From IMG/VR virus record IMGVR_UViG_3300019124_000003, positions 1 to 64,000 of that record: 64,000 nt of DNA; one strand, written 5' to 3'. This DNA comes from a virus. How positions within the stretch are numbered: the first letter of the stretch is position 1; every line of letters starts with the position of its first letter. The translations under genes and the position numbers were made by a program. A model generated the notes under the pieces. It worked only from the letters and a program-made list of their open reading frames with translations. It was not told the origin of the DNA and searched no databases. Positions 2,433 to 55,010 of this stretch are shown here, in pieces.

Positions 2433-3071
2433 ATGCTAACAATCGCCTGTCTCTCTCAGAAGGGTGGATGCGGTAAGTCCACTCTTTCGCGTCTCATAGC
2501 CCGCACCTACGCTCAGGCCGATTGGCGAGTGAAGATCGCGGACTTCAACACCAAGCAGAAAACCTCCGTCGATTGGGTCGCCTTGAGGCTCCATCAGAAG
2601 ATCGAGCCCGTGATCCAGGCCGAGCCATTCACGTCGGTCAAGACGGCCCTCAAGCAATCGAACTTCGACCTGATGGTGTTCGACGGCAAACCGGATTCCG
2701 AGCCGTCCACCCTCGATCTCGCCAAGGAAGCCAATCTGGTCGTCATTCCTGCGGTCCCGACCCAGGACGACCTGATCCCCAATATCAAGTTCGCCCACGA
2801 GCTGCGGGCGCGGGCCGTCCATCAGCCGAAGATCTTCTTCGTCATCAACAAGACAACCGAATCCCAGGTCTGGGCGGATGCGGCACGCGCCTATATCCAG
2901 GAAGCGGGCTACTCCGTCGCCAGGACGGAGCTGCCCTACAAGACGGGCTACCAGACGGCACAGAACACGGGTCGCGCCGTCTCGGAGACGAACTACCCTT
3001 CACTGAACGAGAAAGCCGATGCCCTCGCAGCCGAGATCGTGGAACGCCTCACCCAGCTCACAGGGAATTAG
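2433..3071 (+). CDS. parA: ParA/Soj-family partition ATPase (small type Ib-like, 212 aa)
   Basis: Deviant Walker A KGGCGKST near N-terminus; ParA-like length and layout. Confidence 0.9.
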   Translation: MLTIACLSQKGGCGKSTLSRLIARTYAQADWRVKIADFNTKQKTSVDWVALRLHQKIEPVIQAEPFTSVKTALKQSNFDLMVFDGKPDSEPSTLDLAKEANLVVIPAVPTQDDLIPNIKFAHELRARAVHQPKIFFVINKTTESQVWADAARAYIQEAGYSVARTELPYKTGYQTAQNTGRAVSETNYPSLNEKADALAAEIVERLTQLTGN

Positions 3072-3072: not shown

Positions 3073-3369
3073 ATGTCGCCGACCCCGAAGAAGCCCAACG
3101 TTCCTCCGCCCCCTGGCAAAGGTAGCTCCGCTCCCAAGCAACGGTTCATGACCAGCGTTCCGACGCTGGACACGGCGCCCGACAACCTGTCCAGGCCCTC
3201 CGAGACGACGCTCCAGGACCTCAACTTCAAGGTCAGCCCGGACTTCCACCGCGCGTTCAAAGTCGCGGCGACCACCCGCGGCATGACCATGAAGGAGCTC
3301 CTGGAAGCCTGCTACTCCCACTACATGCAGGCCTTCCCGATGAAGCAGGACGACCTGTTCCGGAAGTGA
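3073..3369 (+). CDS. ribbon-helix-helix DNA-binding protein, ParG-like partner of ParA
   Basis: ATG 1 nt after parA stop; disordered basic N-terminus then beta-alpha-alpha pattern LNFKVSPDFHRAFKVAATTRGMTMKELLEACY. Confidence 0.65.
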   Translation: MSPTPKKPNVPPPPGKGSSAPKQRFMTSVPTLDTAPDNLSRPSETTLQDLNFKVSPDFHRAFKVAATTRGMTMKELLEACYSHYMQAFPMKQDDLFRK

Positions 3370-3527
3370 CGGCCAAGGATGGAGATCCGGGAGTGTCGGT
3401 CTACCGCCAAGGACCGTGCCGGGAGTGAGGTGGAGCCAGGCGGCATCCTCCTCGCGCGAAAGCTGTCAATCTAGGACTTCGACTTTTTGCACGATTGCAA
3501 CTTTCTTGCGCGACACTCACAAGCGCG

Positions 3528-3561
3528 AAAAAAAACAAGCGCTAGAGTCGCTCTAGCGCTT
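3528..3561 (-). terminator. intrinsic terminator after 3620..4300
   Basis: AAGCGCTAGAG-CGA-CTCTAGCGCTT followed by G and T8 on the minus strand; a second hairpin with the same stem lies at 3579-3603. Confidence 0.7.
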
Positions 3562-3619
3562 GCGTAGTGTCTGAGACTGCTAGAGCGCTTGAAGCGCTCT
3601 AGCGTGCGTTAGAAGCGAT

Positions 3620-4300
3620 TTAATCGCTATTCTTTTTGCGACGCGAAGCTTTCTTGTCAGTCGCTTCACTCTCGCTCGCTTCTGTTACGTTGTTCTCTTT
3701 CATCTTGAGCGAGAGTTTCGACGCAAGCAACTTTGTTGCTTCGCTATCGTAGTTCACGCGATAAGCGTGCGTGCGCGACATAGACGCGACACGCTTAATG
3801 ATGTTGAACACTTGCAACGCATTAACGTTCATCGACGTTTGAGCGCTTGCAGTCGAAGCAGACGCGCGCGTAGTAGTGTAACGTTCGATATGCTTCTCGC
3901 GCTCTGCGCTGAAAGCGTTACACTCTAACGAACAAGCTGCGCGAAAGTCTTCTGCGTTGCAGTCGAGATCAGCAGCGCTCAGATTGAAGACGCTGCGAAT
4001 GCAACTCAAGAACATTGCATTCATGTGCGTGACAGTCTCGTTGTTCGCGAACAAGCGCGCGAGTTCAGCAACGCGCTTGAGAGAATGAACGTTGAATTGT
4101 GCATCTGCGTTGCGCGACGAAACAACGAAGTCGCAAGCAACGTTGAGTTTCATCATGACTTCAGCAAGTCGCACGTCGTTGATCTTTTTGCGATAATCTT
4201 GCAGATTACGAACGTTGCTTTCGTTCTTATCTTTCGCAATGCGCGAATCGACGAAAGCAAGATGCGCGTCGAGATAGTCTTTAGCAGTAGCGTAGTTCAT
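3620..4300 (-). CDS. hypothetical protein in low-GC island; paralog of 6628..7476
   Basis: Start chosen at MNYATAK behind leader CAGCAACACACAAAAGAGAG; C-terminal SASTASAQTSMNVNALQVFNIIK matches SASTASTQTSSTMHALQALGIVK of 6628..7476. Confidence 0.7.
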   Translation of the reverse strand: MNYATAKDYLDAHLAFVDSRIAKDKNESNVRNLQDYRKKINDVRLAEVMMKLNVACDFVVSSRNADAQFNVHSLKRVAELARLFANNETVTHMNAMFLSCIRSVFNLSAADLDCNAEDFRAACSLECNAFSAEREKHIERYTTTRASASTASAQTSMNVNALQVFNIIKRVASMSRTHAYRVNYDSEATKLLASKLSLKMKENNVTEASESEATDKKASRRKKNSD

Positions 4301-4356
4301 GTTTCTAACTCTCTTTTGTGTGTTGCTGTTATCAGTTGTGTTCAACTGACAATGCA

Positions 4357-4385
4357 AATCTAGTGACTTGCACATGTGCAGTCAA
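4357..4385 (-). promoter_or_regulatory. sigma-70-like promoter with palindromic operator
   Basis: TTGACT-N17-TAGATT upstream of 3620..4300; spacer holds the 12-bp palindrome TGCACATGTGCA (4369-4380). Confidence 0.5.
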
Positions 4386-4787
4386 TACTGACTGTTATGC
4401 AAAAACGCATGTGAACTTTGCAGGGTTGCAGCAACGAAATAGCCTTGTGCAATGTAATGGGATTGCGCTACGTCAGAACGTAGCGAGGCGCTATCACGTA
4501 GCGCGACGTTGCATCATAGCGCGACGTTGTTCTATTGCGCAACGATAGAACAGAGCGAAACGTTACAAAGCCGCGTCCCATGGGCTTGCCCTGGGCGCGG
4601 CGGGTCCCTCGGTTCCTGGCCGTGCCACACGACCGGACGCCGTATCATGGAATTCGCCTATGGCTGGCCCAAGACCCCGCACACGAGCCATACCTAACCG
4701 GGCCACCGAGATCCAGCCCCTAGGGACACCGGACGCACCGACACCGTCCCTTCCTGCCCCGCCCGGCTCCCAAGGCAACGACCGGGA

Positions 4788-4837: not shown

Positions 4838-5188
4838 CTATAGGGCGCTCTCGAACGCCGCCTGCTCAGCCTCCTTCTGAGCCCTGCGTTGCCTGATCAC
4901 GCGCACGCGAGCCGCCTCCCTGCGCGCGATTTCCTCGTTGACCGCCTCAGTCACCGAGTCGAGATCTGCGATCCCGATGTTCCCGAGAGCTGCTGCCGCG
5001 CGCTCGACCATGATCGCCTTCTGCGACTGAATCTGCGCCCACAGCTCCCGCGAGTAGCGAAGCTGCTGCGATTTGAAGCCTCGCTCGACGCCCCGGCAGA
5101 ACTCCTCGAAGTCAGCCATCAGCGAGACGAAGCGCGCGCGAGTCGCGGGAGCGATCTTAGCGAGAGCGACGAAATCGACGTTGAGCAT
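4838..5188 (-). CDS. hypothetical protein (116 aa)
   Basis: Class-1 promoter and leader GCAACACGCGAAAGGG upstream of ATG. Confidence 0.7.
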   Translation of the reverse strand: MLNVDFVALAKIAPATRARFVSLMADFEEFCRGVERGFKSQQLRYSRELWAQIQSQKAIMVERAAAALGNIGIADLDSVTEAVNEEIARREAARVRVIRQRRAQKEAEQAAFESAL

Positions 5189-5227: not shown

Positions 5228-5259
5228 TTCGCTAATTCGCTATTTCGCGTCGGCTGGGA
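5228..5259 (-). promoter_or_regulatory. class-1 phage promoter
   Basis: TCCCAGCCGA-N14-TTAGCGAA upstream of 4838..5188. Confidence 0.5.
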
Positions 5260-5428
5260 AACGCGAGGGATCGAGATGGCCCGTCCTGTGGTTTGCGCAT
5301 GGGAAGGCTCAAGGGATCCGGAATGGGCGCCCGGCGTGGCATTCCCCTGGGAAGCGTCCGTGGCCTGGCCGGCGCGGACTGGACCGGCCTGGCCGGCATG
5401 GACCGGACCACCATGGGACCGGCCGGGT

Positions 5429-15329: not shown

Positions 15330-15989
15330 ATGCCCACCTACGTCGCCTATCTCCGCAGATCCACGGCCAAGCAGGCCATCACCGTCGAGGCCCAGGAGGA
15401 AGCGATCCGCCGCTTCATCGGCGGCCGCGGCGAGATCATTGCGAGCTACACGGAGACGGAAAGCGGCAAGCGCAAGGACCGTCCGGAGCTCCTGAAGGCC
15501 CTCGACCACTGCCGGCGCACGAAAAGCGTCCTGGTCATCGCCAAGCTCGACCGCCTGGCGCGCAACGTCGCCTTCATCGCCAACCTGATGGAAGCGGGCG
15601 TCGAGTTCCTGGCCGTGGACTTCCCGGAGGCGAACCGGCTCACGCTCCACATTCTCGCGGCCGTGGCCGAGCACGAATTGCGGATGATCTCGGAGCGGAC
15701 CAGGACGGCGCTCCAGCAGCTCAAGCGGCAGGGCCGGCGGCTCGGCAATCCGAAGAACCTGCCCCAGGCTCAGGCATTGGGCCGGGCGACCCAGATCGAG
15801 CGGGCGGCGCAGCGCGCCGAAGACATCGCTCCGGTCATCGAGGAGATCAGGCAGACCGGCCTCAAGACCCTCGAGGAGATCGCCGTTGCGCTCAACCGTC
15901 GGGGCTACAAGACGGCGCGCGGCCGCCCCTGGCACAAGACATCGGTTTCGCGGGCCCTGACCCGCGCCAGAAACCTAGAGGGCGTGTGA
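15330..15989 (+). CDS. small serine recombinase (resolvase/invertase family)
   Basis: N-terminal YLRRSTAKQ catalytic-serine block, VIAKLDRLAR, C-terminal HTH-like LEEIAVALNRRGYKTARGRPW. Confidence 0.85.
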   Translation: MPTYVAYLRRSTAKQAITVEAQEEAIRRFIGGRGEIIASYTETESGKRKDRPELLKALDHCRRTKSVLVIAKLDRLARNVAFIANLMEAGVEFLAVDFPEANRLTLHILAAVAEHELRMISERTRTALQQLKRQGRRLGNPKNLPQAQALGRATQIERAAQRAEDIAPVIEEIRQTGLKTLEEIAVALNRRGYKTARGRPWHKTSVSRALTRARNLEGV

Positions 15990-18683: not shown

Positions 18684-19070
18684 TCACGCGCCGCCCAGCT
18701 CCACGTTCCGCACGGAGCTCGGGCCCCAGCGTTGGCCCAGCGCGGGTTTGATGCCGCGTTTGTTCAGCTCCTCGGCGATGCCGCGATAGCTGTTGATGCC
18801 GTTCGCCCGGATCTCCTTGATGACCGGACGGACCTGCTCCCGAAACTCGATCGCCTGCTTGTGCCTGGTTTCGTGGCCGCGGTGCCGGCCCAGATGCAGC
18901 CCGGCGAGCCGTCCTGGCTTGCCGCGCTGCTCCAGCGCTGCCCTCAAGTTCTCCCGGGCGACACGGAACTGGTCCCAGAAGGTCGGCGATTCCGGATCGA
19001 GGTTCACGATCACCTCGGCCGCCCTTCGCAGGTTCCGATGTCGCACCTGGAGCGCTTTCAGGTCAGGCAT
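18684..19070 (-). CDS. stand-alone recombinase-type HTH domain protein
   Basis: RPVIKEIRANGINSYRGIAEELNKRGIKPALGQRWGPSSV parallels the C-terminus of serine recombinase 15330..15989; no catalytic domain. Confidence 0.6.
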   Translation of the reverse strand: MPDLKALQVRHRNLRRAAEVIVNLDPESPTFWDQFRVARENLRAALEQRGKPGRLAGLHLGRHRGHETRHKQAIEFREQVRPVIKEIRANGINSYRGIAEELNKRGIKPALGQRWGPSSVRNVELGGA

Positions 19071-19260
19071 CCTTCTCTTCCTCCGTCACGTAGTCGATGA
19101 CAAAGGGCGGATCGACCTCTTCGAGCGCCACTTTCACGGCGGCGTCGATGTTATCGAACCGACCCTGCCATCGCGCGCCCTTCTTGGGCAGTTTGATCTG
19201 AAGCTTTCCGGACTTGGCGTCGCGGAACACCTTCAGAACAGGCTTAACGGCGTCATCCAT
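19063..19260 (-). CDS. hypothetical protein (65 aa)
   Basis: Full ORF, overlaps neighbours by a few nt. Confidence 0.55.
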   Translation of the reverse strand: MDDAVKPVLKVFRDAKSGKLQIKLPKKGARWQGRFDNIDAAVKVALEEVDPPFVIDYVTEEEKDA

Positions 19261-19384
19261 CGCTTCGTGCCCAGGCGATTGTGGTCACGAAGTCGCGAAC
19301 GACGCGCAGTCCGGGAAGTGTCACCACCCCGGCCAGGAAGGACAGGATGCCAAGCACAACGTAGGAATAAGTCGTCGGGTCCAT
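19256..19384 (-). CDS. small membrane protein (42 aa)
   Basis: RBS GGAGGA; MDPTTYSYVVLGILSFLAGVVTLPG...; below ORF-track cut-off. Confidence 0.45.
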
Positions 19385-19433
19385 CGATGTTCCTCCAAGT
19401 CACTTCTGACTGTCAACCCCGGCTAAAGGGTCA

Positions 19434-19691
19434 TCAGTTGAGGGTGACTTCCATCGCGGTCATCGTCTCGCTCGCCATGTAGAGCTGATCGAGGATCGCC
19501 GGATTCTTCAGGGCGTAGGCGAGCGCCAGGATCTTCCTGCCCTGGTCGATCTGGGCGTCCGTCAGCGTCTCCGGATCGATCTCGCCGGTGGAGAAGACCT
19601 GGAAGGTGCCGTCGGGCTTAAGGACGATGCCGGCGTCGCCGCGCTGGATCGGGGTGGTCAGGACGTTCTCGGTGGTGATCAGTGCCGTCAC
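19434..19691 (-). CDS. hypothetical protein (85 aa, GTG start)
   Basis: Leader GCAACACGAGAGGAGAAATC then GTG; class-2-like promoter at 19725-19748. Confidence 0.55.
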   Translation of the reverse strand: MTALITTENVLTTPIQRGDAGIVLKPDGTFQVFSTGEIDPETLTDAQIDQGRKILALAYALKNPAILDQLYMASETMTAMEVTLN

Positions 19692-19724
19692 GATTTCTCC
19701 TCTCGTGTTGCGTTTCGTGCTTCT

Positions 19725-19748
19725 CACATAGCGATGGCGCAGCGGGAG
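19725..19748 (-). promoter_or_regulatory. class-2 phage promoter
   Basis: CTCCCG-N10-GCTATGTG upstream of 19434..19691. Confidence 0.45.
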
Positions 19749-19752
19749 CGCG

Positions 19753-19914
19753 TCAGATGCCGAACAGTCCCAAAACGTCGGAAGCCTCGGACCGGGCTGG
19801 GTTCCGAGGCTTCCTGGTGTAGGCCTTCTTTGACCTGACGATGCGCTGGCGATAGAGCGGTTTCGCCAGTTCGCGGGCGGCATGATTCGGCTTCTTGCTA
19901 AGCTTCTTCCGCAT
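19753..19914 (-). CDS. small basic protein, ArfA-like (alternative ribosome-rescue factor A pattern)
   Basis: MRKKLSKKPNHAARELAKPLYRQRIVRSKKAYTRKPRN...; PL(F/Y)RQR(V/I)...KK...Y.RK resembles E. coli ArfA [34 protein letters not shown]; sigma-70-like promoter. Confidence 0.45.
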   Translation of the reverse strand: MRKKLSKKPNHAARELAKPLYRQRIVRSKKAYTRKPRNPARSEASDVLGLFGI

Positions 19915-19938
19915 CCTTATCTCCTATAAATTTGTTCT

Positions 19939-19966
19939 TGCATACAACTTGTGTGCAACTTGTAAA
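19939..19966 (-). promoter_or_regulatory. sigma-70-like promoter
   Basis: TTTACA-N16-TATGCA upstream of the ArfA-like gene; direct repeat ACAAGTTG x2 across it. Confidence 0.5.
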
Positions 19967-20135
19967 TACTTAGCATAAGTTACACGGTAACGCTACGGGA
20001 TTTAGCGAAAAGGCGACTTCGCGCAAAGGCGAATTAGCGTGGTGAAAACGCCGCAGCCTTTGAAAACGTTGGATAAATCGGAATGGTTAAGCTGTGAACT
20101 GTTTTTTTGTTCACAGTTTGTTCTCGTTCACCATA

Positions 20136-20165
20136 TTGACGAGAGCCTCGGCAACCCTCATTAAA
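20136..20165 (+). promoter_or_regulatory. sigma-70-like promoter
   Basis: TTGACG-N18-ATTAAA upstream of the EF-hand gene. Confidence 0.4.
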
Positions 20166-20234
20166 AGTGGCGCGGCTGGTTGGGGCGAATACAGATAAGA
20201 TAGCCCCTAGTCTGCTTTCCAAAAGGTATAAGCC

Positions 20235-20699
20235 ATGACAGTCACTATTAGGGGCAGCTTCCAGACACACAAAGAAGGTCTCGCTGCTGCAATGTTGATC
20301 GCCGCAAGAAATTACGTTGCGGCAAAGGGGCTGGGTTATTTCGATGCCTCCAAGCTTTCCGAATACCCACGTCGCCTCGAAGACCATGCCGGCGAGATCC
20401 TTGCGCTCGGCACCAATGCCTTCGATGACGAAGAGGAAAGCGAGGAGCGTTCGAGAACGCGCTCCATGAACACTGCCGTCGAGGTGGTCCGGCAACATGG
20501 GCGCCGCCTGGCGCTGATTATTTTCGTGCTCGCCGCATTGCCGGCCTATTCCATCCTCGACTGCGATGCCGACGGCATGATCAGTCTTGCCGAGATCGAG
20601 TGCGTCTTCGACGGCTCGCATTCGCATGGCGCAAGCGTCGTCGCGGCGACGGATAGCGCGCGCACGAAGTCCGCTGCCATGCTCGGGGAGAACCAATAG
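20235..20699 (+). CDS. membrane protein with canonical EF-hand loop
   Basis: DCDADGMISLAE fits the 12-residue EF-hand loop; TM LALIIFVLAALPAYSIL; own promoter and terminator; opposite strand to neighbours. Confidence 0.7.
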   Translation: MTVTIRGSFQTHKEGLAAAMLIAARNYVAAKGLGYFDASKLSEYPRRLEDHAGEILALGTNAFDDEEESEERSRTRSMNTAVEVVRQHGRRLALIIFVLAALPAYSILDCDADGMISLAEIECVFDGSHSHGASVVAATDSARTKSAAMLGENQ

Positions 20700-20752
20700 A
20701 TCTTCGACGCCGATTTGGCTGAAACCAACTGATCCGCTGCGGCAGCAGCGAC

Positions 20753-20783
20753 ACCCCGGGTCCAAGACCCGGGGTTCTTGCTT
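20753..20783 (+). terminator. intrinsic terminator after the EF-hand gene
   Basis: ACCCCGGG-TCCAAGA-CCCGGGGT then TCTTGCTT; abuts the 3' end of tRNA-Cys on the other strand. Confidence 0.65.
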
Positions 20784-20787
20784 GAAT

Positions 20788-20862
20788 TGGAGTTGCGGGA
20801 GGGACTTGAACCCTCATAGACGGATTTGCAGTCCGCCGCCTCACCCTTCGGTCCACCGCAAC
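20788..20862 (-). tRNA. tRNA-Cys (GCA)
   Basis: Manual fold: 7-bp acceptor GTTGCGG/CCGCAAC, anticodon loop CTGCAAA, T-arm GAGGG-TTCAAGT-CCCTC, discriminator U73, CCA encoded; D-stem weak. Confidence 0.85.
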
Positions 20863-21080
20863 GAAATTTCGGCCCGCTGAATCGGGATGCCAGGCAAGCC
20901 GGGGATCGGAGCCAGACGGGCCCGGATGGTTTCGGTTCATCCTACTGCCACCCATGTTCGGGTCGATGCGGGCCGGATTGGCTACCGGCACCCGGTTTTG
21001 CGACCCAACCCGTCGGCTGGGGCTCAGGGCGGTCCCGACTCTAGCGAGCTCCCGGAGGATCTACCTCTGCCGCATCGAAA

Positions 21081-21156
21081 TGGTTGCTCCGGCTGGATTT
21101 GAACCAGCGCTCCCGGATTATGAGTCCGGCGCTCTACCAGGCTGAGCTACGGAGCC
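21081..21156 (-). tRNA. tRNA with CAT anticodon (Met, Ile2 or initiator unresolved)
   Basis: Manual fold: D-arm GCTC-AGCCTGGTA-GAGC, anticodon arm CCGGA-CTCATAA-TCCGG, T-arm GCTGG-TTCAAAT-CCAGC, CCA encoded; G1-A72 mismatch. Confidence 0.8.
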
Positions 21157-21256
21157 GAAGAGTGCAGGTCGGACGCTACCCCGACCCTGTGGACGATAGG
21201 CGTGGTATCGACGCCTCGTTTTACGTCATCGGCATTGCTGCCGACCCTGGAAGGCG

Positions 21257-21329
21257 TGGAGCCGGCCGGAATCGAACCGGGCATCCTTCGCAGACCGTTC
21301 TGGACGCTCTACCCTTGAGCTACGGCCCC
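21257..21329 (-). tRNA. tRNA-Ala-like element with non-canonical anticodon arm
   Basis: Acceptor GGGGCCG/CGGCTCC with G3:U70, canonical D-arm GCTC-AAGGGTA-GAGC and T-loop TTCGATT. The anticodon region TCCAGAACGGTCTGCGA cannot form a 5-bp stem with a 7-nt loop and has no U33. Confidence 0.5.
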
Positions 21330-21843
21330 AAAACTCGTTGGGGCTTCCCCGTCCCAGGTTCTCGTTCCACTGATTAGCGTGTTCGCTCCCACGCCGCTGC
21401 ACTCTCCGTAAAACTCGGTGATGGGGAGGGACCAGTTGGATCCCACTGGGTTGGTGGAAGGCCCCTCCCCTATTCGGTGCTCCGATTATCGTCGTGGCCC
21501 TCGGAGCAACGGGCGGTCGCATCACGCTCGATCCAGGCGTCCGCCGTTCACGCCAGCGAGACCACACGCAAGTTTAGGTCATTGCAGACCCGCTTCCGCG
21601 AGAGATGGCACGGAACCCTGGCTCAGACGCGCGAGGCGTCCCCAAGTAGGCGGTGCGTGCCGAGATCAAAGATTTGATGTCGGTGTTGCGGCAGGTCTCC
21701 CGGATCAGTGTTTAGCGATGCGGGCGACGGTATAAGGCCGCTATGGCGAACGTGTCAAGTCAGAACTGACTTAGCTAACGTCGGAGCATGGTTCCCTCCC
21801 CTGTTGTCGCTGCGCGTGTCGCTCATGCGCTGTCGATGATTTG

Positions 21844-21867
21844 ACTATAGCAGCGCATGAGCGGCTG
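21844..21867 (-). promoter_or_regulatory. class-2 phage promoter of the tRNA region
   Basis: CAGCCG-N10-GCTATAGT; no ORF follows for ~500 nt before the tRNA-like element. Confidence 0.5.
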
Positions 21868-21910
21868 TGTGTCGGGATTTAGCGAAGCAGCGAAATAGCC
21901 GCTTCGCCCT

Positions 21911-22186
21911 TTAGCGCCACTGAGCCTTGAGCTCCTGCACGCCCTTCGTGACCTCGGCCTGGTCGTAGCGGGGATGGCGCTTCCAGTAAGCCATCTTCTT
22001 CTCGCAGATCGCCATCTCCTTGCGCGCCTGGGCCCGCTCGCGCCCGTCCTTCGAGGCCTTGGCGATGAAGTCGAGGTAGAGGTAGTTCGCGTAGTGCTTG
22101 AGATAGTGCTTGACCGCGTTCCAGCGCTCATACGGGACGGTTGGAGCTCCGCCCTCGTGTCGTTCTTCGCTATAGATGATCGCCAT
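21911..22186 (-). CDS. hypothetical protein (91 aa)
   Basis: Start MAIIYSE behind class-1 promoter and leader CAGCAACACGGAGG. Confidence 0.65.
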   Translation of the reverse strand: MAIIYSEERHEGGAPTVPYERWNAVKHYLKHYANYLYLDFIAKASKDGRERAQARKEMAICEKKMAYWKRHPRYDQAEVTKGVQELKAQWR

Positions 22187-22219
22187 ATGCGAACCTCCGT
22201 GTTGCTGAACGATCACATG

Positions 22220-22251
22220 ATCGCGCAGCAGAGCACGGAAGTCGGGTGGGA
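22220..22251 (-). promoter_or_regulatory. class-1 phage promoter
   Basis: TCCCACCCGA-N14-TGCGCGAT upstream of 21911..22186. Confidence 0.5.
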
Positions 22252-22274
22252 AATTAGCGGTTTAGCGAAATCGC

Positions 22275-22499
22275 CTATTCGCTCTCGTCCTCGACAGTCT
22301 CCTTCAGCAGTTGCCTGAGCAGAAGGTCCTGGTTGTAGGAGTTGAGCTGGCGCGTCACCAGCACCGTCACGTAGACCAGGTGCTTCGGATCCTTGATCTC
22401 GGCGAAGGCTCTCCGGACGTTGAGCCCCTCCCCTATCCGCACCCAGCCGGCAATCCGGTCGGCCTTGTCAGCCAGAACTCTCAGCTCCCCTTCGGTCAT
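22275..22499 (-). CDS. hypothetical protein (74 aa)
   Basis: RBS GGGGACGGAG; full ORF. Confidence 0.65.
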   Translation of the reverse strand: MTEGELRVLADKADRIAGWVRIGEGLNVRRAFAEIKDPKHLVYVTVLVTRQLNSYNQDLLLRQLLKETVEDESE

Positions 22500-22556
22500 C
22501 TCCGTCCCCTTTTAGCGCTTTCGCGAATTCGTCATCGGTCAGGAGGTGGATATACA

Positions 22557-22739
22557 TCAGGCCACCCATTTTCCGCCACCGCAGCTCCATGAGCGGGGCT
22601 GCTTCACGCCGATGATCTGGTCGTCCGGGAAGATGGCCCGATGCTTCTCCCGGGCTTCTTTGGGCGAATTAGCGAAATGGTCGGCCGCGAAGCTGCGATT
22701 CCAGCCGGGCCGCTTCCAGAACACGAGATAGTGGTTCAT
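22557..22739 (-). CDS. hypothetical protein (60 aa)
   Basis: Start MNHYLVF, ATGA coupling. Confidence 0.55.
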   Translation of the reverse strand: MNHYLVFWKRPGWNRSFAADHFANSPKEAREKHRAIFPDDQIIGVKQPRSWSCGGGKWVA

Positions 22740-22912
22740 CGGGCCGCCTCCCTGGCGACAATCACGCCGTCCTTCAGCAGCACCACCTGCCGGATGCCGC
22801 CTTTGGCGATCCGCGCGCACTCGCGGGCGTAGCGGGCCCGGGCGGCGTCGCCGTCCTCGACCGGAGCGCGCCAGGTCGGCGCGCCGCGGTAATCCACGAT
22901 CACCTGATACAT
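22736..22912 (-). CDS. hypothetical protein (58 aa)
   Basis: MYQVIVDYRGAPTWRAPVED...; strong RBS CGCGAAAGGAGGAA; below ORF-track cut-off. Confidence 0.5.
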   Translation of the reverse strand: MYQVIVDYRGAPTWRAPVEDGDAARARYARECARIAKGGIRQVVLLKDGVIVAREAAR

Positions 22913-22958
22913 CGCTGATTCCTCCTTTCGCGAATGGGCGATTTAGCGAAACGAAGGC

Positions 22959-23417
22959 TCACCAGGAGCCCTCTTCCGCAAGCTGCGCGGGATCCGGCCG
23001 CTTGACCTTCAGCCGGAGCCGAACCAGGTCCACGTCGTCATTGACGCCGCGATTTAGCGATTTCGCGAGTTCGCGCGGCCGCGCCGGCGGTGCGTCGTAG
23101 ACGACCAGTCCGCCGTTGGCCTCGATCTCCTCGAGGAGCTGGCGCCAGTATTTGCGGAGCATCGGTCGCGCTTTCGCTAATTGGCGATCGGTCATGTGAT
23201 TGCGCCACCTCGGCAGCGCCTTCGCGATCGAGGTCAGGAACGGCGCGTCGTTGGCGTTGAAGCCGCGGCCGTTGCGGACCCGGGTGGTCTCGTCGGACTG
23301 CTCGTCTTCGGTCTGCCGGGCGAACAGGGTCAGGATCGCTTTGGCGACCGCCTGATCGTTGGTGTCGAGGAGCTGGATGATCGCGTCTTTGTCCCAGACT
23401 TTCTGCTGCGTGGTCAT
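22959..23417 (-). CDS. hypothetical protein (152 aa)
   Basis: Start MTTQQKV behind class-1 promoter at 23455-23486. Confidence 0.7.
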   Translation of the reverse strand: MTTQQKVWDKDAIIQLLDTNDQAVAKAILTLFARQTEDEQSDETTRVRNGRGFNANDAPFLTSIAKALPRWRNHMTDRQLAKARPMLRKYWRQLLEEIEANGGLVVYDAPPARPRELAKSLNRGVNDDVDLVRLRLKVKRPDPAQLAEEGSW

Positions 23418-23454
23418 CGTCGTGTCCTGCAATAGCGTTGCTGACGAGACGACG

Positions 23455-23486
23455 ATCTCAAATTCCTGACGGACAGTCGGGTGGGA
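23455..23486 (-). promoter_or_regulatory. class-1 phage promoter
   Basis: TCCCACCCGA-N14-TTTGAGAT upstream of 22959..23417. Confidence 0.5.
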
Positions 23487-23827
23487 TTTCGCGAATGCGC
23501 GAATGGGAGATTTAGCGATAGCGCGGAATCGCTTTAGAGCGTCGCTGAGCGACGGCAGCGCGTGTCGAGTGTCGCTCTAGTGACGAGAGCGCCCCGTCGC
23601 TCTGTGAGCGCTTAGAAGCGCTGCAAAGCTATAACCAGTTCAACGCTACTTGAACGATTGCGCGATCTTGCGCGTTGTGCGCTGGACGCGGCTCCGGCCG
23701 ATGGCTAGGAAGCCGCGTCTAACTGGAAAGCAGACAAACTTGGCGGCTCCGGTCTCGGCTGGAGTCGCCCTTTTAACGCCTGGGATTCGAAAAGGTTTGG
23801 TCGGGGGATCGACCGCGAATCCGCTAT

Positions 23828-23992
23828 TTAGCGAAACCAGCTCATCACCGTGCCGCCCGCGGCCACAAAGCCCAAGAGCACCAGGAATCCGAAGGCGGCC
23901 ACGCCGAGCATTTGGACGATCTCCGGCAGCTCCCGTTCGATGAAGAACTGGATGGAGATCCGGAGGTTTCTCAGATGCCAGCGGATGCCCAT
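23828..23992 (-). CDS. small membrane protein (54 aa)
   Basis: RBS AAAGGAGGAA; MGIRWHLRNL...GVAAFGFLVLLGFVAAGG; below ORF-track cut-off. Confidence 0.45.
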   Translation of the reverse strand: MGIRWHLRNLRISIQFFIERELPEIVQMLGVAAFGFLVLLGFVAAGGTVMSWFR

Positions 23993-24013
23993 TTTCGCTA
24001 ATTCCTCCTTTCG

Positions 24014-24280
24014 TTAAATCGTTATCGGAAACCAGACGCGGACGTGGCTGGAGCCGGGATGGTCCCAGTCCCAGGTCACGTTCTCGGTGATGCTGAAGGC
24101 TTTGAGCCAGTGCTCCATCGCCGGCCGGTCCGACGCAGGGATCACGATTCTTGCCTTCACATTCGGCTCGGCGCCGTCAAGCACGACGACCACATCGAAG
24201 ACGGCGAGATCCGTCGTCTTCTTGAGGTGGTCGATCAGCAGCTTGAGGGGAGGGACGTAGGATTTCGCGGTTTCGCTCAT
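24014..24280 (-). CDS. hypothetical protein (88 aa)
   Basis: ATG 3 nt after rtcB stop; RBS AAGGGGA. Confidence 0.65.
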   Translation of the reverse strand: MSETAKSYVPPLKLLIDHLKKTTDLAVFDVVVVLDGAEPNVKARIVIPASDRPAMEHWLKAFSITENVTWDWDHPGSSHVRVWFPITI

Positions 24281-24283
24281 TCG

Positions 24284-25657
24284 CTAATTCCCCTTCTTCT
24301 TGCGCCAGGGCGCGTCCTTCTCCCAGTCGCCGGCCATGATCGAGCCATAGGGCAGGATCTCGTCGGTGATCTGTGCCAGACCATACTTGGCGATCTGGAA
24401 CCGCACCGCGTCGGCGTTCTTGTAGGCGGACGGCAGCTCGGAGTGGTCCGGGATACCGCAGAACGAGCGAATGTCGAGGCCCTGCGCCTGGAGCGCCGCT
24501 AATTCGTCCTTTAGCGATTCCGCGTTCTCGCGAAGGTGCTGCGAGCGGGAGGAGTTGCGGCCGGCGCCGTGCGGCGCGAAGCCGAGCGCCTCCTTCCTGT
24601 TCTTGTGCCGCGCGATCAGGATCGGCTGGCTCATGTTGAGCGGGATCAGGGTCCGGCCGTCATCGTCCGCGGAGAAGCCGTCCCACGAGGGCGTGGCGCC
24701 CTTGCCGTGATAGAACAGCCCGTCGGACTTCTGGAAAACGAAATTATGTTCGTTCCAGAACCGATCGACGATCTTGTTGCCGATCATCATCGCGGCGAGG
24801 TCATGGATCGCGAAATGCGAGCGCTTGGTCCAGTCGCGGACGATCTGAAGGGCCTTCCAGTATTCCTGCCCGTCGGCCGAATCCGCCTTGAGCCAGGCAT
24901 TGTGCGCCGGGACCTTCGGGGCGTGGATCGCCGTGTGCCGCTTCGCATCGGCCATGCCGCGCTTGTAGAGCTGCGCGCCCAAGCCCCTCGAGCCGTGATG
25001 GGTCACGAGGGCGAGCTGTCCCGTGCTCTTGAGGCGGCCCACATAGGCGAAGTGGTTGCCGTCGCCCTGGGAGGCGAAGTGCCCGAGCGCATAGTTCTCC
25101 AGGCCCGCTAAATAGCGATTTCCCGAAATCGCGCTCATGATGGCCCGCGGCGGCTCGATCATCTTGTCGCGCCCGCCCGGCCCGAAATGCGTCACCGACT
25201 GCACCGCGTCGAGCAGCTTCTTGGGCTCGTCCTGGCGCATGAACACCGAGATCGCCACCGAGCAGCAGATGTCGGACGAGTGGAAGCCCGGATGGATCGC
25301 GTCTTCGCAGGCGACCGCGCCGCCGACCGGAATCGTGCCGAGCTGGCTGCCGGCAGGGCAGGCGTCGGGCATCACCGCGCCGGCCTTGATCGTCGGCACC
25401 CGCATCAGAGCGTCCATGTGCTTGACGACCGCTTCCAGGTTCTCGCGCTCCTGGTCCGTCTCCGGATCAAGGAAGACGGAGTAGGGGAGGGCGTTCGTCC
25501 GCAGCAAGGTTTCGACCGGCTGCATCGTCTGGAGATGGGCGAAGATTGCGTCATCGTCCGCACCCTCCGCGCGCATACGGTTGGCCGTCAGGAGCGCGTC
25601 CTTGAACCACCTGCCGGGCTTGAAGCCCCATTCTTGTAGTGTGAGCCCCGTGATCAT
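24284..25657 (-). CDS. rtcB: RtcB-family RNA 3'-phosphate ligase
   Basis: 457 aa with GDGNHFAYVG, HHGSRGLG and C-terminal PHGAGR blocks typical of RtcB. Confidence 0.9.
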   Translation of the reverse strand: MITGLTLQEWGFKPGRWFKDALLTANRMRAEGADDDAIFAHLQTMQPVETLLRTNALPYSVFLDPETDQERENLEAVVKHMDALMRVPTIKAGAVMPDACPAGSQLGTIPVGGAVACEDAIHPGFHSSDICCSVAISVFMRQDEPKKLLDAVQSVTHFGPGGRDKMIEPPRAIMSAISGNRYLAGLENYALGHFASQGDGNHFAYVGRLKSTGQLALVTHHGSRGLGAQLYKRGMADAKRHTAIHAPKVPAHNAWLKADSADGQEYWKALQIVRDWTKRSHFAIHDLAAMMIGNKIVDRFWNEHNFVFQKSDGLFYHGKGATPSWDGFSADDDGRTLIPLNMSQPILIARHKNRKEALGFAPHGAGRNSSRSQHLRENAESLKDELAALQAQGLDIRSFCGIPDHSELPSAYKNADAVRFQIAKYGLAQITDEILPYGSIMAGDWEKDAPWRKKKGN

Positions 25658-25691
25658 CGTTCTTTCGTCCTTTCGCTATTTCGCGGAATCG

Positions 25692-26051
25692 TTACTGGTT
25701 GCGCTTCTTGCGCGGATCCTGGTCCTCGCGCAGCGCGCGGCTCTGCTCGGCCATCTCCTTCGTGATGTTCATCACGGCGCCCAGATCCTCGTATTCGTGG
25801 ACCATCGCCGTCTCGACCTTCATCGGAACCGGGTGAGGGGTCAGCGTCGTGATCGCGACCGAGCCGCCCGCGTTGAGCAGGGCGAGCTCCTCCTTCGTCG
25901 GCTTCCACATCGACGTGACGGTGTAAGCCTGAATGTCCGGATACCAGATGCGCTGCACGGACAGCTCACCGCACGGCCCGAGCTTGCCCTCGTCCCAGCC
26001 TTCCGGCTGGCCGTAGCGCTGGTTGGCTCCTTCGAACAGAATCGGGCGCAT
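25692..26051 (-). CDS. hypothetical protein (119 aa)
   Basis: Full ORF, immediately upstream of rtcB. Confidence 0.7.
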   Translation of the reverse strand: MRPILFEGANQRYGQPEGWDEGKLGPCGELSVQRIWYPDIQAYTVTSMWKPTKEELALLNAGGSVAITTLTPHPVPMKVETAMVHEYEDLGAVMNITKEMAEQSRALREDQDPRKKRNQ

Positions 26052-26065
26052 GAAACCTCCTGTTG

Positions 26066-26365
26066 TTACGCCACGTTGCGGACGGGGATCTTGAGGGCCT
26101 CGTAGAGGGTCACGGCGCGCGGGCAGAAGCCGAAGAAGCCGGAGAGCTCCTCCAGGCGCGCGAACTGCTCGACCCGCTCGATGTTCTGGCGCGTATCGAG
26201 GTGATAGGCGACGTAGGGCTTCTCGACGCCCTGGACCTCAAAGACCTGCATGAAGCCGCGGCTCCGATCGAACCCGCATCCCCAGCGTTGGCTCGCGAGC
26301 TTCACGCCCTCGATCGTGAGGGATCCGCCGTCGGCAAGTGAAATGGTGTGACGCTCGATCTGCAT
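26066..26365 (-). CDS. hypothetical protein (99 aa)
   Basis: Full ORF; RBS GGGAAAGGG. Confidence 0.7.
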   Translation of the reverse strand: MQIERHTISLADGGSLTIEGVKLASQRWGCGFDRSRGFMQVFEVQGVEKPYVAYHLDTRQNIERVEQFARLEELSGFFGFCPRAVTLYEALKIPVRNVA

Positions 26366-26404
26366 GGAATTCGCCCTTTCCCGAATCCGCTAATTCGCTA
26401 TTTC

Positions 26405-26432
26405 GCCAAAAGGGGAGGGCGTTACCCTCCCC
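26405..26432 (-). terminator. intrinsic terminator after 26457..27308
   Basis: GGGGAGGG-TAACG-CCCTCCCC then TTTTGG. Confidence 0.65.
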
Positions 26433-26456
26433 GTTTTCGTCAATCGGTGATGAGGA

Positions 26457-27308
26457 TCACTCCTCGCTCTTGCCCATCAGGTCCTTGAGCGCCTGGGCGA
26501 GCATCGAGTCGGCGCGCAGCTTCAAGGTCTGCTTCTCGCGATCCGCGATCTTGAGGATCGGGAAGAGCGCCATGATCTGACCCGCCTGACTGCGCGCGGT
26601 GCCTTCCGAATACTTCTTGCGGAGTGCGGCCACGAGGTCGGTCGAGGTCGTCTCGCCGGTCTTCGCCAGGACCTCGAAGCACTCCATCACGTAGACGGAC
26701 GGCTTGCGGCCCGCGGCGACCGCGGCGAGCACGTTGTCGAACTTCTCGGCAACCTTCTTGATCGCCGGGCGCGAGGCGAGCACGGCCGCCTTGTTGGCGT
26801 CGAGATCCTCCGGGATCTCGGTCGTGAGCACGAAGTTCTCGGCCGGCAGGCTCGACAGGTCGCGGGCGACGCGCGGAACGCCGGTGCCTTTCGAAGCCTT
26901 CGTCTTCGCAGGCTTCGTCTCGACCGGCGTCGCCTCGGTCGTCATGTCGCTGCCTTCGGCGCTCTCATACGCCTCGGACTTGGCGATCTCGATCTCGACG
27001 GCCCGATCGATGTCCTCGTCCACCAGGTCCTCGATTTGGGCATCGTCCGCAGTCTGCGCCTCAAGCGCCGTCTCGTCGGGCTCCTCCACGATGTCCTCCT
27101 CGATCGCCGGCTCGTCGCGGTCCTCGACCGGAAGATCATCGAGCAGGTCGAGGGCGGCCATCACGTCGTCGGCCACAACATCGCCAGAAGTCACGCCAGG
27201 GTTCACAGTCATCGCTTCAATCTCCTCTAGTAGTGCGCTCGTCGCGTCATCGCTTGCGACAGTTTCAGTTATAGCGTCGTCCTGACGGAGCTGCGGGTGG
27301 GATTGCAT
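26457..27308 (-). CDS. acidic protein with C-terminal domain related to 6628..7476
   Basis: N-terminal half very Asp/Glu-rich; C-terminal TARSQAGQIMALFPILKIA resembles TASTQTSSTMHALQALGIVKA; alternative start at MTVNPG (RBS AGAGGAGA). Confidence 0.7.
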   Translation of the reverse strand: MQSHPQLRQDDAITETVASDDATSALLEEIEAMTVNPGVTSGDVVADDVMAALDLLDDLPVEDRDEPAIEEDIVEEPDETALEAQTADDAQIEDLVDEDIDRAVEIEIAKSEAYESAEGSDMTTEATPVETKPAKTKASKGTGVPRVARDLSSLPAENFVLTTEIPEDLDANKAAVLASRPAIKKVAEKFDNVLAAVAAGRKPSVYVMECFEVLAKTGETTSTDLVAALRKKYSEGTARSQAGQIMALFPILKIADREKQTLKLRADSMLAQALKDLMGKSEE

Positions 27309-27932: not shown

Positions 27933-28482
27933 GTGCCACCTCCATGCCTTCCGGCAGTCTGAACCAGCCCCAGTCGAGGCCCCTGAAGAAAGCGTCCATC
28001 ATCACGCCCACGTCGTAGTCGGCGGCGTGCGCCTTCTCGGTGTCGTAGGGAATGTCGGTCGCAAAGCATAAGGCGCCGAGATTGGGGATCGCCCCGTTCG
28101 CCGTCGCCCAGCGGCCATTGAGCATCGTATCGACGATCGGCTTGTCGATCGGCTCCAGCCCGACGCGCTCCAGTTCGTAGTTGATGAACGGGCCGTCGAA
28201 CTTCTTCCAGTTGTGGCCGACGACCACATCCGCCTCGTCGAGCATGTCGCGGACACGAGGCGCAACGACGTTCCAGGTCGGGCAGCCTTCCACGTCCGCG
28301 AGGCTGATGCCGTGAACGCGCTGCGTCTCGATGGGGATCGAGCGCTGCGGATCGAGCCTGGTGTAGAACTTCTTGACCAGCTTGCGCGAGGTCAGATCCC
28401 AGTGGCCGAGATAGATCTCGACCATGCGATGATCGCCTGGCTCAAGCCCGGTCGTCTCAATATCTCCGCCCAGAATGATCAT
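27916..28482 (-). CDS. DEDDh 3'-5' exonuclease (DnaQ-like)
   Basis: DIETTG (Exo I), HNWKKFD (Exo II), HAADYD (Exo III); ATGA coupling; ORF-track N-terminal extension is non-coding-like. Confidence 0.85.
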   Translation of the reverse strand: MIILGGDIETTGLEPGDHRMVEIYLGHWDLTSRKLVKKFYTRLDPQRSIPIETQRVHGISLADVEGCPTWNVVAPRVRDMLDEADVVVGHNWKKFDGPFINYELERVGLEPIDKPIVDTMLNGRWATANGAIPNLGALCFATDIPYDTEKAHAADYDVGVMMDAFFRGLDWGWFRLPEGMEVARAEAA

Positions 28483-28988
28483 ACATGGCTCCACGTCTTG
28501 CCCGCGATGATGTCGCGGATCGTTCGTTCGCTGACTGAATACTTTATAGCGAGCGCTGAGAGGTCGTGCGGGATGGCAGCGCGAATCTCCTCGACCTGGC
28601 GCGCGGTAAGTTTCGCGTTGGAGTTCGACGAGCCGCGGGTGATCTTGAGGCCCGTCTTGAAGGCGTGCTCCTCGTTCTCGCTCTGCGTCGCCCATTCCAG
28701 ATTCTTGGGGTGGTTGTTCCGCTTGTTGCCGTCCAGGTGATTGACGTGCGGCTTGTTCTCCGGGTTCGGATGATAGGCCCAGGCGACCATCCGGTTGACC
28801 AGCACCGATTTCGTGATGCCCTTGAAGGTCATCGTGAAATAGACGCGGCCCGTTTTCTTGTGGACGCGCGGCACCACGCTGACGTAGCGCCCGCCCTTGA
28901 ACTTCTGGATCGTGCCGTCGAGCAGGACGCGGTAGGCGCCGCAGCGCAGCGCGTCCTTGATCCATTCGTCCTTGTCGAACTTCACCAT
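28479..28988 (-). CDS. HNH homing-type endonuclease
   Basis: VNHLDGNKRNNHPKNLEWATQSEN HNH block plus C-terminal HTH-like tail. Confidence 0.85.
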   Translation of the reverse strand: MVKFDKDEWIKDALRCGAYRVLLDGTIQKFKGGRYVSVVPRVHKKTGRVYFTMTFKGITKSVLVNRMVAWAYHPNPENKPHVNHLDGNKRNNHPKNLEWATQSENEEHAFKTGLKITRGSSNSNAKLTARQVEEIRAAIPHDLSALAIKYSVSERTIRDIIAGKTWSHV

Positions 28989-49699: not shown

Positions 49700-50098
49700 T
49701 CACACACGGACGCGGCCGGGCTGGAGCTTGAAGTGCTGGAACGGCAGGTAGCGCTGGAGCGCGCCGCCCCGGGCCTCGTAGTTGAGGATCTTGGCCGCGG
49801 AGCGGTCGAAGAACTTGTCCAGCGTGGTCATGTAGACATCGTTGGTGTCGCGGACCTTCACGCCCACGAACTTGATGCCCTCGGCGCGCATCCGGATCAG
49901 GTCCTCCTCGTCGATGGCCCAGCAGGCCGTGCCCTTCCGGATGGCGTCTGAAATGGTCTTCTCGCCGGACCGGAAGATGTCCTGAATCCGGCGATAGGCG
50001 AGGTAGCACCGCTTGCCGCTAGGAAGCGTGTATATACCGCCATAGACCCTGCGGCCCTTCTTGACCTGTGTGATCGTAACTTTCTTTGAGCGCGCCAT
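49700..50098 (-). CDS. hypothetical basic protein (132 aa)
   Basis: Only in-frame start; overlaps the ASCH gene end by 80 nt. Confidence 0.6.
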   Translation of the reverse strand: MARSKKVTITQVKKGRRVYGGIYTLPSGKRCYLAYRRIQDIFRSGEKTISDAIRKGTACWAIDEEDLIRMRAEGIKFVGVKVRDTNDVYMTTLDKFFDRSAAKILNYEARGGALQRYLPFQHFKLQPGRVRV

Positions 50099-50519: not shown

Positions 50520-50583
50520 CGCGAATTCCCTGCTCTGTCTGTTCGACAGATAGGGCTATTCGCGATTTAGCGAAAGAGGAGGC

Positions 50584-54929: not shown

Positions 54930-55010
54930 ACGGCTATCCTTTCTTGCGTTCGTTCGTGTTGCGATTACGGCTTGCGCGCTAGATTAGCGATTTAGCGATT
55001 TCGCTATTTC

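Follow-up and report, generated by a model that had tools for sequence, protein, structure and literature searches.

What reads a short DNA word that recurs some twenty times within 6.4 kb of a viral genome, between its genes as well as inside them? The question is raised by a stretch of 64,000 nucleotides from the IMG/VR virus record IMGVR_UViG_3300019124_000003 (positions 1 to 64,000, hereafter the window), which is, judged from its sequence relatives, part of a ~114-kb phage-plasmid of the RHEph10/pLM21S1 type from a Hyphomicrobiales (Rhizobiales) host. In a field at 19994-26409 the word belongs to tandem 8-bp boxes, and the same boxes stand directly upstream of parA, the first gene of a partition (par) cassette whose second gene encodes a putative ribbon-helix-helix (RHH) protein. 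We demonstrate below that the motif is real and phased by 8 bp, that it is under selection inside genes and conserved in relatives, that it is linked to par, and that it covaries with the recognition strand of the RHH protein. By comparison of sequences, we propose with a probability of about 0.7 that the arrays are operators and centromere sites coated by the RHH partition protein, as at parH and OF of TP228 and parS of pSM19035. Such plasmids are carried by cultured hosts, Methylobacterium sp. AMS5 (pAMS5a) and Sinorhizobium sp. LM21 (pLM21S1).

Phased boxes between and inside genes

The word TTAGCGA occurs 20 times on the two strands of the whole window, compared with 4.79 ± 1.99 times in dinucleotide shuffles (maximum 10), and 13 of the 20 copies lie inside 20002-24517. 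The shorter word TTAGCG/CGCTAA occurs 31 times, of which 21 fall in 19999-26407, in accordance with the about twenty copies that a first-pass annotation, made from the letters alone, had reported for this interval; among the examples it quoted, those at 54981-55010 and 22251 are present, whereas the one placed at 23487 is off by one, the TTCGCGAA unit starting at 23488. In an unbiased k-mer screen, TTAGCGAA and TAGCGAAA are among the top three over-represented 8-mers of the window. What that annotation missed is the phased array as the actual unit, together with the phage-plasmid nature of the element and the counterparts of the field in its relatives. The box is 8 bp long and near-palindromic, TT(A/C)GC(G/T)AA, with a GCGA/TCGC core and a 4-bp A/T-rich spacer, and it is repeated every 8 bp, three to six times per array, in direct and inverted orientations. 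Read in register, the field resolves into tandem units such as TTAGCGAT TTAGCGAT TTCGCTAT or TTCGCCCT TTCCCGAA TCCGCTAA TTCGCTAT TTCGCCAA. Same-strand pairs of GCGAA/TTCGC at exactly 8 bp number 12 versus 0.57 expected, and those at the other spacings from 4 to 33 bp number 0-3 per strand, with almost all values 0 or 1.

Arrays were called as three in-phase units scored against TTMGCKAA (maximum 24), with 100 order-3 Markov simulations as the null. At a cut-off of 19, the window contains 16 arrays versus 0.02 expected, 14 of them in the field; at a cut-off of 18, it contains 20 versus 0.21, with 15 in the field. The field thus holds ~15 arrays and ~60 boxes in 6.4 kb, occupying nearly every intergenic gap and four places within genes. 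Arrays outside the field start at 2392, 5228, 50559, and 54984, and a further hit at 37858 is probably fortuitous. A compositional accident in an A/T-richer intergenic stretch of a 62% G+C genome has a negligible probability: the field is slightly lower in G+C (0.59-0.62), and 34% of it is non-coding as against 21% in the rest of the window, but the number of arrays, the strict 8-bp spacing, the excess over codon shuffles described below, and the conservation of the arrays in a related phage (L002) and in pAMS5a, which the earlier annotation had made a touchstone of its proposal, exclude chance. The motif field is real and non-random. Against the packaging site once suggested stand the scatter of the field arrays across 6.4 kb and the lack of any array in the adjoining 9.3 kb on the left, where the terminase, portal, and ParB_N-domain genes lie; the overlap with GANTC, from which a modification target had been surmised, is weak (5 versus 1.7 expected). 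The sites are as follows.

2392-2439, parA-proximal array, putative par operator: GGAACGAA TTAGCGAA ATGCCTAA AGCGCGAG TTCGCCCA AATGCTAA, the last unit reaching the parA ATG
5228-5267, array outside the field: TTCGCTAA TTCGCTAT TTCGCGTC .. AACGCGAG, upstream of gene 4838-5188 (-)
19994-20041, field array 1: six units, alternately oriented, in the intergenic gap that separates the divergent genes 19753-19914 (-) and 20235-20699 (+)
21871-21918, field array 2: six units covering the TAA stop codon of 21911-22186 (-) and, as read on the minus strand, upstream of the cluster of three tRNAs
22254-22285, field array 3: four units on the stop codon of 22275-22499 (-), upstream of 21911-22186 (-)
22512-22535, field array 4: three units immediately upstream of the ribosome-binding site of 22275-22499 (-)
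22911-22950, field array 5: five units across the ribosome-binding site and start of 22736-22912 (-), with the Shine-Dalgarno unit AGGAGGAA in phase with the boxes
23046-23077, field array 6: four units within the coding sequence of 22959-23417 (-), with a CTA Leu codon
23165-23188, field array 7: three units within the coding sequence of 22959-23417 (-), with a TTA Leu codon
23488-23535, field array 8: six units in a 410-nucleotide gap, 70-120 nucleotides upstream of 22959-23417 (-)
23812-23835, field array 9: three units on the TAA stop codon of 23828-23992 (-)
23978-24025, field array 10: score 18, GGAGGAATTAGCGAAAATG, across the ribosome-binding site and start of 23828-23992 (-)
24264-24287, field array 11: three units across the rtcB TAG stop codon and the start of 24014-24280 (-); a box is also present at the junction of the rtcB stop and the next start in L002
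24495-24534, field array 12: five units within rtcB (residues ~376-388), with CTA and TTA codons
25104-25135, field array 13: four units within rtcB (residues ~176-186), with a TTA codon; window lineage only
25672-25695, field array 14: three units immediately upstream of the rtcB ribosome-binding site and start, kept in L002 (GCGAATTAGCGAAAGGACGAAA)
26370-26409, field array 15: five units, bounded by a terminator-like hairpin (26412-26432) and by the start of 26066-26365 (-); the only array that follows a hairpin
50559-50574, two-box site outside the field: after a hairpin, upstream of 50019-50519 (-)
54984-55015, SSB array: immediately downstream of a CTATAT -10-like element, upstream of the gene for a gp32-like single-stranded DNA-binding protein (SSB), 53952-54929 (-)

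The site at 5228, previously read as the -10 element of a class-1 promoter, is a three-box array upstream of gene 4838-5188, and the promoter reading finds no support. At 26412-26432 and other sites, GGGGAGGG-loop-CCCTCCCC hairpins are followed by T runs on the coding strand and are terminator-like, the 8-mer occurring 17 times. The 410-nucleotide gap of the field also contains GCGCT-rich palindromes (23520-23620), similar to those at 3536-3603.

Gene calls of the source contig (ENA ERZ27286118 k141_285988, 114,398 bp) divide the 21 six-nucleotide words of the field into 11 intergenic copies, 1 across a gene boundary (the rtcB stop), and 9 coding copies, including 2 at stop codons. Inside genes the boxes are written with leucine codons that are, as had been supposed, rare: TTA accounts for 11 and CTA for 23 of the 1417 Leu codons in 81 genes, and the field boxes hold three TTA and two CTA codons. 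The in-frame readings given earlier are correct, namely, TCG CTA AAG GAC GAA TTA GCG and TAT TTA GCG in rtcB, and CAA TTA GCG AAA in 22959-23417. The codon-preserving shuffle that had been named as a check was run with synonymous codons permuted within each gene, keeping the protein and the codon usage (300 shuffles). The 11 field genes contain 5 seven-nucleotide words versus a shuffle mean of 0.86, 8 six-nucleotide words versus 2.5, and 4 arrays versus 0.07, and none of the 300 shuffles attained the observed counts. In the 70 genes outside the field, the six-nucleotide word is instead depleted (2 versus 7.4), indicating that the motif is avoided there. The first of the rtcB stretches above is common to the window and L002, whereas adjacent synonymous positions differ; RtcB homologues of phages without boxes that have Leu at the positions of array 12 use CTG or CTC. 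Codon usage, shuffles, and the rtcB comparison agree that selection at the sequence level maintains the motif inside genes through rare Leu codons, and the in-gene copies, taken with the depletion in other genes, are consistent with a dense local clustering of sites, and not promoter placement alone, having been selected.

The par cassette and its boxes across relatives

The cassette next to the array at 2392-2439 consists of two genes.

2433-3071 (+), parA: small ParF-like Walker ATPase of type Ib, 212 aa; Pfam CbiA, 1.3e-8
3073-3369 (+), ParG/omega-like RHH protein, proposed array binder: 98 aa, with weak RHH signals

ParA matches ParF (4dzz, residues 3-203) and a TP228-type ParA (5u1g, residues 3-204) from end to end, and is, as is usual in type Ib, a small Walker ATPase (~200-215 aa) lacking an N-terminal DNA-binding domain. 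It is retained together with the same downstream RHH gene in ~45 related loci. In the RHH protein, residues 1-48 are disordered and rich in proline and basic residues, and the recognition strand reads LNFKVSP.

The same boxes immediately precede parA both here and in ~15 related par loci, among them those of L032 (the same phage as L002), L033, L035-L037, L042, L043, L045, L055, L056, L060, and pAMS5a, and equivalent arrays are present in more than 20 related par loci. Several of these are short metagenome contigs with little besides parA and the RHH gene, and the arrays are still present upstream of parA. Box sequence follows the recognition strand: among 15 non-redundant lineages with an NF(K/R) strand, 13 have mainly GCGAA/ACGAA boxes and none mainly TAGCT, whereas 9 of the 10 lineages with a (T/S)FN(M/V)P strand have mainly TAGCT(A) boxes. 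NFKV thus pairs with GCGAA/ACGAA and TFNMP with TAGCTA; the SFSVP strand, seen in one lineage, accompanies CCTGAA arrays, and the QFRIP strand, also seen in one, accompanies TGCAA boxes, which are found upstream of parA in the metagenomic par locus L084. Altogether, 22 of 25 lineages, counted without regard to phylogeny, have the box type that goes with their par-linked strand, and in a cross-matrix of 8-bp-spaced pairs every lineage repeats its own box only. Two IMG/VR relatives with 69% identical RtcB (L006 and L008) have no GCGAA boxes and carry TTGCAAGCATGCAAAT, that is, TGCAA phased by 8 bp, near start codons, including across that of rtcB.

Array positions are conserved as well. In pAMS5a, a complete plasmid serving as a whole-genome proxy, arrays occur only at parA, at the SSB gene, and in a 4.8-kb field (75976-80779) that is syntenic with the field of the window and adjoins a 3'-5' exonuclease gene. 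In L002, at least 12 arrays are found at comparable places (before rtcB, at its stop, and inside it), the flanking proteins being 33-77% identical to those of the window and six small window genes having no L002 counterpart. The RHH protein 3073-3369 had already been among the binders suggested for an operator, nucleation, or centromere-like site, and the comparative evidence favors it; for the winged helix-turn-helix proteins suggested alongside, no evidence was found.

It is unlikely that the boxes are purely transcriptional operators or roadblocks, with no centromere function, of another DNA-binding protein, such as a small protein of the field or the second, CopG-like RHH protein encoded beside repC in pLM21S1 (L053 1276-1479) and pAMS5a (L050 905-1051). 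Phased palindromic 8-bp boxes point to an RHH protein but not to which one; pLM21S1 and pAMS5a differ in the repC-adjacent strand too, the field lies at a distance from par, and arrays keep close to promoters and start sites. However, the par-only contigs keep their arrays upstream of parA, the box type follows the par-linked strand in most lineages, type Ib systems as a rule are autoregulated by their centromere-binding RHH protein (PMC3130281, PMC9499535), and no DNA-binding domain was detected in the small field proteins with Pfam and PHROGs.

At the SSB gene, the order of a -10-like element (CTATAT/CGCTATAA) followed by an array is kept in the window (ATAGCGAA ATCGCTAA ATCGCTAA), in pAMS5a (GCGA-type boxes), and in pLM21S1 (TAGCTA-type boxes, TAGCTAAA TAGCTAGA TAGCTAGG). 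Because CGCTATAA is identical across both box types, the boxes do not belong to the promoter consensus. It is very unlikely that they are promoter elements for small early units, used by host sigma-70 or a sigma factor of the phage, or parts of a mobile cassette like PeSL of T4, even though the field is a variable small-gene region including the genes absent from L002, TCGCTAAAT resembles the CGCTATAA of the ordinary promoters of the element, and relatives encode a sigma-like factor. The arrays at the SSB gene lie downstream of the -10-like element, boxes occur in both orientations, and tandem 8-bp phasing is not a property of promoters. A sigma-70 promoter and terminator scan of 19400-26600 found no enrichment, with 1 sigma-70-like promoter versus 1.6 expected, and alignments anchored on sense-strand TCGCTAA or TTAGCGA revealed no conserved -35/-10 partner element. 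A field of the T4 PeSL type was rejected on these counts, with a single array following a hairpin.

A signal read in mRNA leaders, as a translational operator or enhancer, by a RegA-like repressor, by a gp32-like SSB with its cooperative ~8-nucleotide site, or by the ribosome, is highly improbable. Many arrays do immediately precede or overlap Shine-Dalgarno sequences and start codons, SD-like units (AGGACGAA/AGGAGGAA) share the 8-bp register of the boxes, and one array precedes the gp32-like SSB gene itself. Yet box orientation is mixed with respect to transcription, and the sense-strand ratio of TCGCTAA to TTAGCGA is 11:3 at the window locus and 5:12 in L002; because the ratios are reversed between these two related phages, RNA-level and other orientation-dependent models (operators of the RegA/gp32 type) were rejected, and with them the translational operator of the first-pass annotation. 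Moreover, palindromic units suit double-stranded DNA and a dimer, some arrays lie at the 3' ends of genes, after stop codons, or inside genes, contigs devoid of the field genes carry the same boxes at their par loci, and the boxes covary with the strand of a DNA-binding RHH protein.

Since the architecture of the boxes is that of RHH operators and centromeres, coating by the par RHH protein is proposed as their function. We infer physical binding of one dimer per box, and a centromere and/or repressor activity. Each dimer would insert its β-ribbon (LNFKVSP) into the major groove of one box, and adjacent dimers would bind cooperatively, so that an array becomes coated in the mode shown for ParG and omega. 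Occupation of the parA array (2392-2439) may autoregulate the par operon, and that of the SSB array (54984-55015), situated just downstream of the -10 element, may cause repression. The arrays of the field (19994-26409) may jointly form a centromere-like platform that loads the ParA ATPase in the plasmid state and probably also dampens or blocks transcription of the small genes, the tRNAs, and rtcB in that state.

Several points weigh against this proposal. The field is 17-24 kb away from the par operon, which is unusual for a type Ib centromere, whereas in pLM21S1, L043, and L041 the arrays cluster around par. Most arrays contain 3-5 boxes, and in pSM19035 at least 4 contiguous repeats are required for full ParA activation (PMC9499535). 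Many arrays adjoin Shine-Dalgarno sequences and start codons, as would likewise be expected of elements acting at translation-initiation regions. The RHH assignment of 3073-3369 is itself weak, the signals agreeing but each being below its threshold: Pfam RHH_10 is hit with E=1e-4, under the family cut-off; the best PDB match of the homologue profile is omega (1irq) at only E=0.036, with ParG (1p94) at E=0.75; and Foldseek matches are non-significant (all E ≥ 2), although the top ones are nearly all RHH proteins including ParG. The AlphaFold2 monomer has helices at 56-68 and 73-87 with a predicted local distance difference test score (pLDDT) of ~90, and is moderate as a whole (pLDDT 66). The repC-adjacent CopG-like RHH protein is a possible alternative binder, the corresponding region of this element lying beyond the right end of the window. 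Finally, the lineage counts ignore phylogeny, and the array map covers the 64-kb window and 9.3 kb leftward of a 114,398-bp contig.

Beyond partition, the same RHH protein may double as a silencer of the prophage state, a doubtful but conceivable extension in which its centromere boxes would have spread through the accessory/early module (small open reading frames, three tRNAs, and RtcB) and to the SSB promoter. Assembly of the partition complex and the shutdown or road-blocking of genes would then be one event, with in-gene boxes blocking elongation, and the system would be an RHH-based, tandem-array counterpart of the mycobacteriophage stoperators, reading a strand-to-box code of NFKV for GCGAA, TFNMP for TAGCTA, SFSVP for CCTGAA, and QFRIP for TGCAA.

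If binding of the arrays by the par RHH protein holds, they predict a cis-regulon and a centromere for the whole RHEph10/pLM21S1-like family, with boxes of a centromere protein distributed across kilobases and held in essential-looking genes at the price of rare codons, and the relatives provide a natural covariation series of RHH strands and DNA boxes useful for understanding and engineering RHH specificity. Phage-plasmids of this family are widespread among rhizobia and their relatives in soil and on plants, and their maintenance and regulation are not known to have been described; the word "repeats" is absent from the one pLM21S1 paper that was text-searched (PMC5537653).

The phage-plasmid and its other features

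The window encodes rIIA/rIIB-like proteins, T4_Y16D, RtcB, three tRNAs, ribonucleotide reductase, a DnaE-type polymerase, SbcCD, a UvsX-like recombinase, the gp32-like SSB, CobS/CobT-like proteins, and a resolvase, and its source contig carries terminase, portal, ParA, and resolvase genes. Its DnaE is 60-64% identical to that of complete 115-119-kb plasmids from Shinella, Methylobacterium (pAMS5a), Rhizobium, Sinorhizobium (pLM21S1), and Pararhizobium, which possess RepC, ParA, and a full tailed-phage virion module with tail and capsid genes; the identification as a phage-plasmid follows from these relatives, which also provide the evidence for RepC, that of this element presumably being encoded beyond the window. 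Stand-alone contigs of relatives in isolate assemblies measure 109-118 kb in Ancylobacter, Phyllobacterium, Faunimonas, and Paracoccus, and 70.5 kb in Chelativorans. An extrachromosomal element of ~110-120 kb with virion, replication, and partition genes agrees with the RHEph10/pLM21S1 type, and pLM21S1 has been published as a plasmid-like prophage and a relative of phage RHEph10 (PMC5537653). A megablast search of a phage database found no close relative of the window, only rtcB being matched (Bradyrhizobium phage BDU-MI-1, 75% nucleotide identity, and RHEph10-like phages).

Near the field, a third tRNA at 21257-21329 (-), not called by ARAGORN, scores 44.4 bits against Rfam RF00005 (gathering score 29) and adjoins tRNA-Met (21081-21156) and tRNA-Cys (20788-20862); an Rfam scan of 19000-27000 found these three tRNAs only and no cis-regulatory RNA. 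The gene at 19753-19914 (-) encodes a highly basic protein of 53 aa (…PLYRQRIVRSKKAYTRKPR…) with no Pfam match and a sole match to PHROG 20887 of unknown function. It resembles, we presume, the ribosome-rescue factor ArfA, which would suggest, with RtcB and the tRNAs, a module for RNA repair and translation rescue. An HNH_3 homing-endonuclease gene (28479-28988, -) lies between T4_Y16D-like and RNase T-like genes, with a promoter-like TCGCTATAA in its 3' end (28549). A serine recombinase (Pfam Resolvase) is encoded at 15330-15989 (+), on the strand opposite to its neighbors, and plausibly resolves multimers in the plasmid state.

Directly after the par operon, an island of lower G+C (3440-4580) contains a minus-strand open reading frame (~3630-4300) and perfect palindromes AGCGCTAGAG/CTCTAGCGCT at 3536-3603; it may have been inserted from a foreign source or may be a further region of protein binding. 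Family-wide, two ParB_N/Srx-domain proteins and a DEAD-box helicase adjoin the par region (L040 6539-8071, to the left of the window; pAMS5a; pLM21S1), near which no arrays or parS-like palindromes were noticed in passing.

Outside the field, a second class of regulatory sites combines the -10-like CGCTATAA/CTATAT, sometimes with CTGACA 17 nucleotides upstream, with a palindrome, AAGTCAG-N3-CTGACTT, that precedes or follows it; CTGACTTA/TAAGTCAG are among the most enriched 8-mers.

62053, 47839, 42683, 40857, 34575, and 28549 (sense strand -), also 30660, 19400, 18650, and 21760: second-class sites

In pLM21S1, such sites have the same -10-like element and a palindrome TAAGTAAG-N3-CTTACTTA, which suggests the site of a second lineage-specific regulator or a 5' mRNA stem-loop.

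Comparison with known systems

The arrays are worth comparing with other systems of repeated sites. MetJ is an RHH repressor that binds tandem (two to five) 8-bp palindromic met boxes (AGACGTCT) cooperatively with one dimer per box, thereby resembling the present arrays in box design and in the class of the proposed binder; it is, however, a chromosomal, co-repressor-dependent metabolic regulator without homology or functional link to the system described here and without a role in partition. The stoperators of cluster A mycobacteriophages, bound by gp71 in L5, are many copies of a short motif in intergenic gaps, often across stop and start codons, and silence prophage genes. They are single, asymmetric, orientation-dependent 13-bp sites spread genome-wide and recognized by a helix-turn-helix (HTH) immunity repressor, in contrast to the tandem, phased, palindromic boxes linked to the par RHH protein at few loci; stoperators of the mycobacterial type were rejected, as the orientation is mixed and the boxes are restricted to a few loci, namely, the field, parA, the SSB gene, and two minor sites. 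In the phage-plasmid N15, the IR (inverted repeat) sites are located among the genes of the phage and affect how its late genes are expressed. The N15 Sop centromere consists of four such separate sites (PMC7205306), so that N15 is likewise a phage-plasmid with several separate centromere sites and not one block, although it relies on a type Ia HTH ParB (SopB) that spreads from single palindromes of the 16-bp class and has no RHH box arrays.

Closer counterparts are found among RHH partition systems. On plasmid pSM19035, omega binds parS at six separate sites, each made up of 7-10 heptads (PMC9499535), and since they overlap promoters, omega both partitions and regulates the plasmid from the same sites. 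The similarity extends to a centromere protein of the RHH class, a putative one here, with omega as the best PDB match of the present RHH profile (1irq, E=0.036), and to short direct and inverted repeats at separate places, with one dimer per repeat as proposed for the boxes here. The heptads are, however, 7 bp long, non-palindromic, and repeated 7-10 times, whereas the boxes here are 8 bp long, near-palindromic, and repeated 3-6 times; omega acts on copy-number, par, and toxin-antitoxin promoters, instead of an SSB gene and a module of small genes, tRNAs, and RtcB, and none of its sites has been described within a gene, whereas some boxes here lie in coding sequence.

In TP228, OF comprises eight ACTC boxes, direct and inverted, separated by regular 4-bp AT-rich spacers and each bound by one ParG dimer, and parH provides twelve further boxes (PMC3130281). 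As in TP228 ParF-ParG, a small ParA is followed by a small protein, here a putative RHH protein, with a disordered N-terminal tail, and an array of mixed orientation and 8-bp period, with G/C-containing boxes and 4-bp A/T-rich spacers, precedes parA. The sequence similarity between the two RHH proteins is marginal (E=0.75), the box contains GCGA/TCGC within TT(A/C)GC(G/T)AA instead of ACTC, and the 20 boxes of TP228 form one ~160-bp block beside parFG, whereas ~60 boxes in ~15 short arrays are distributed here over 6.4 kb, 17-24 kb from par, partly in coding sequence and on a phage-plasmid. Altogether, the arrays are best explained as a known kind of site, the centromere/operator arrays of type Ib RHH proteins, in which the phage-plasmid setting and the scatter over 6.4 kb and into coding sequence are new.

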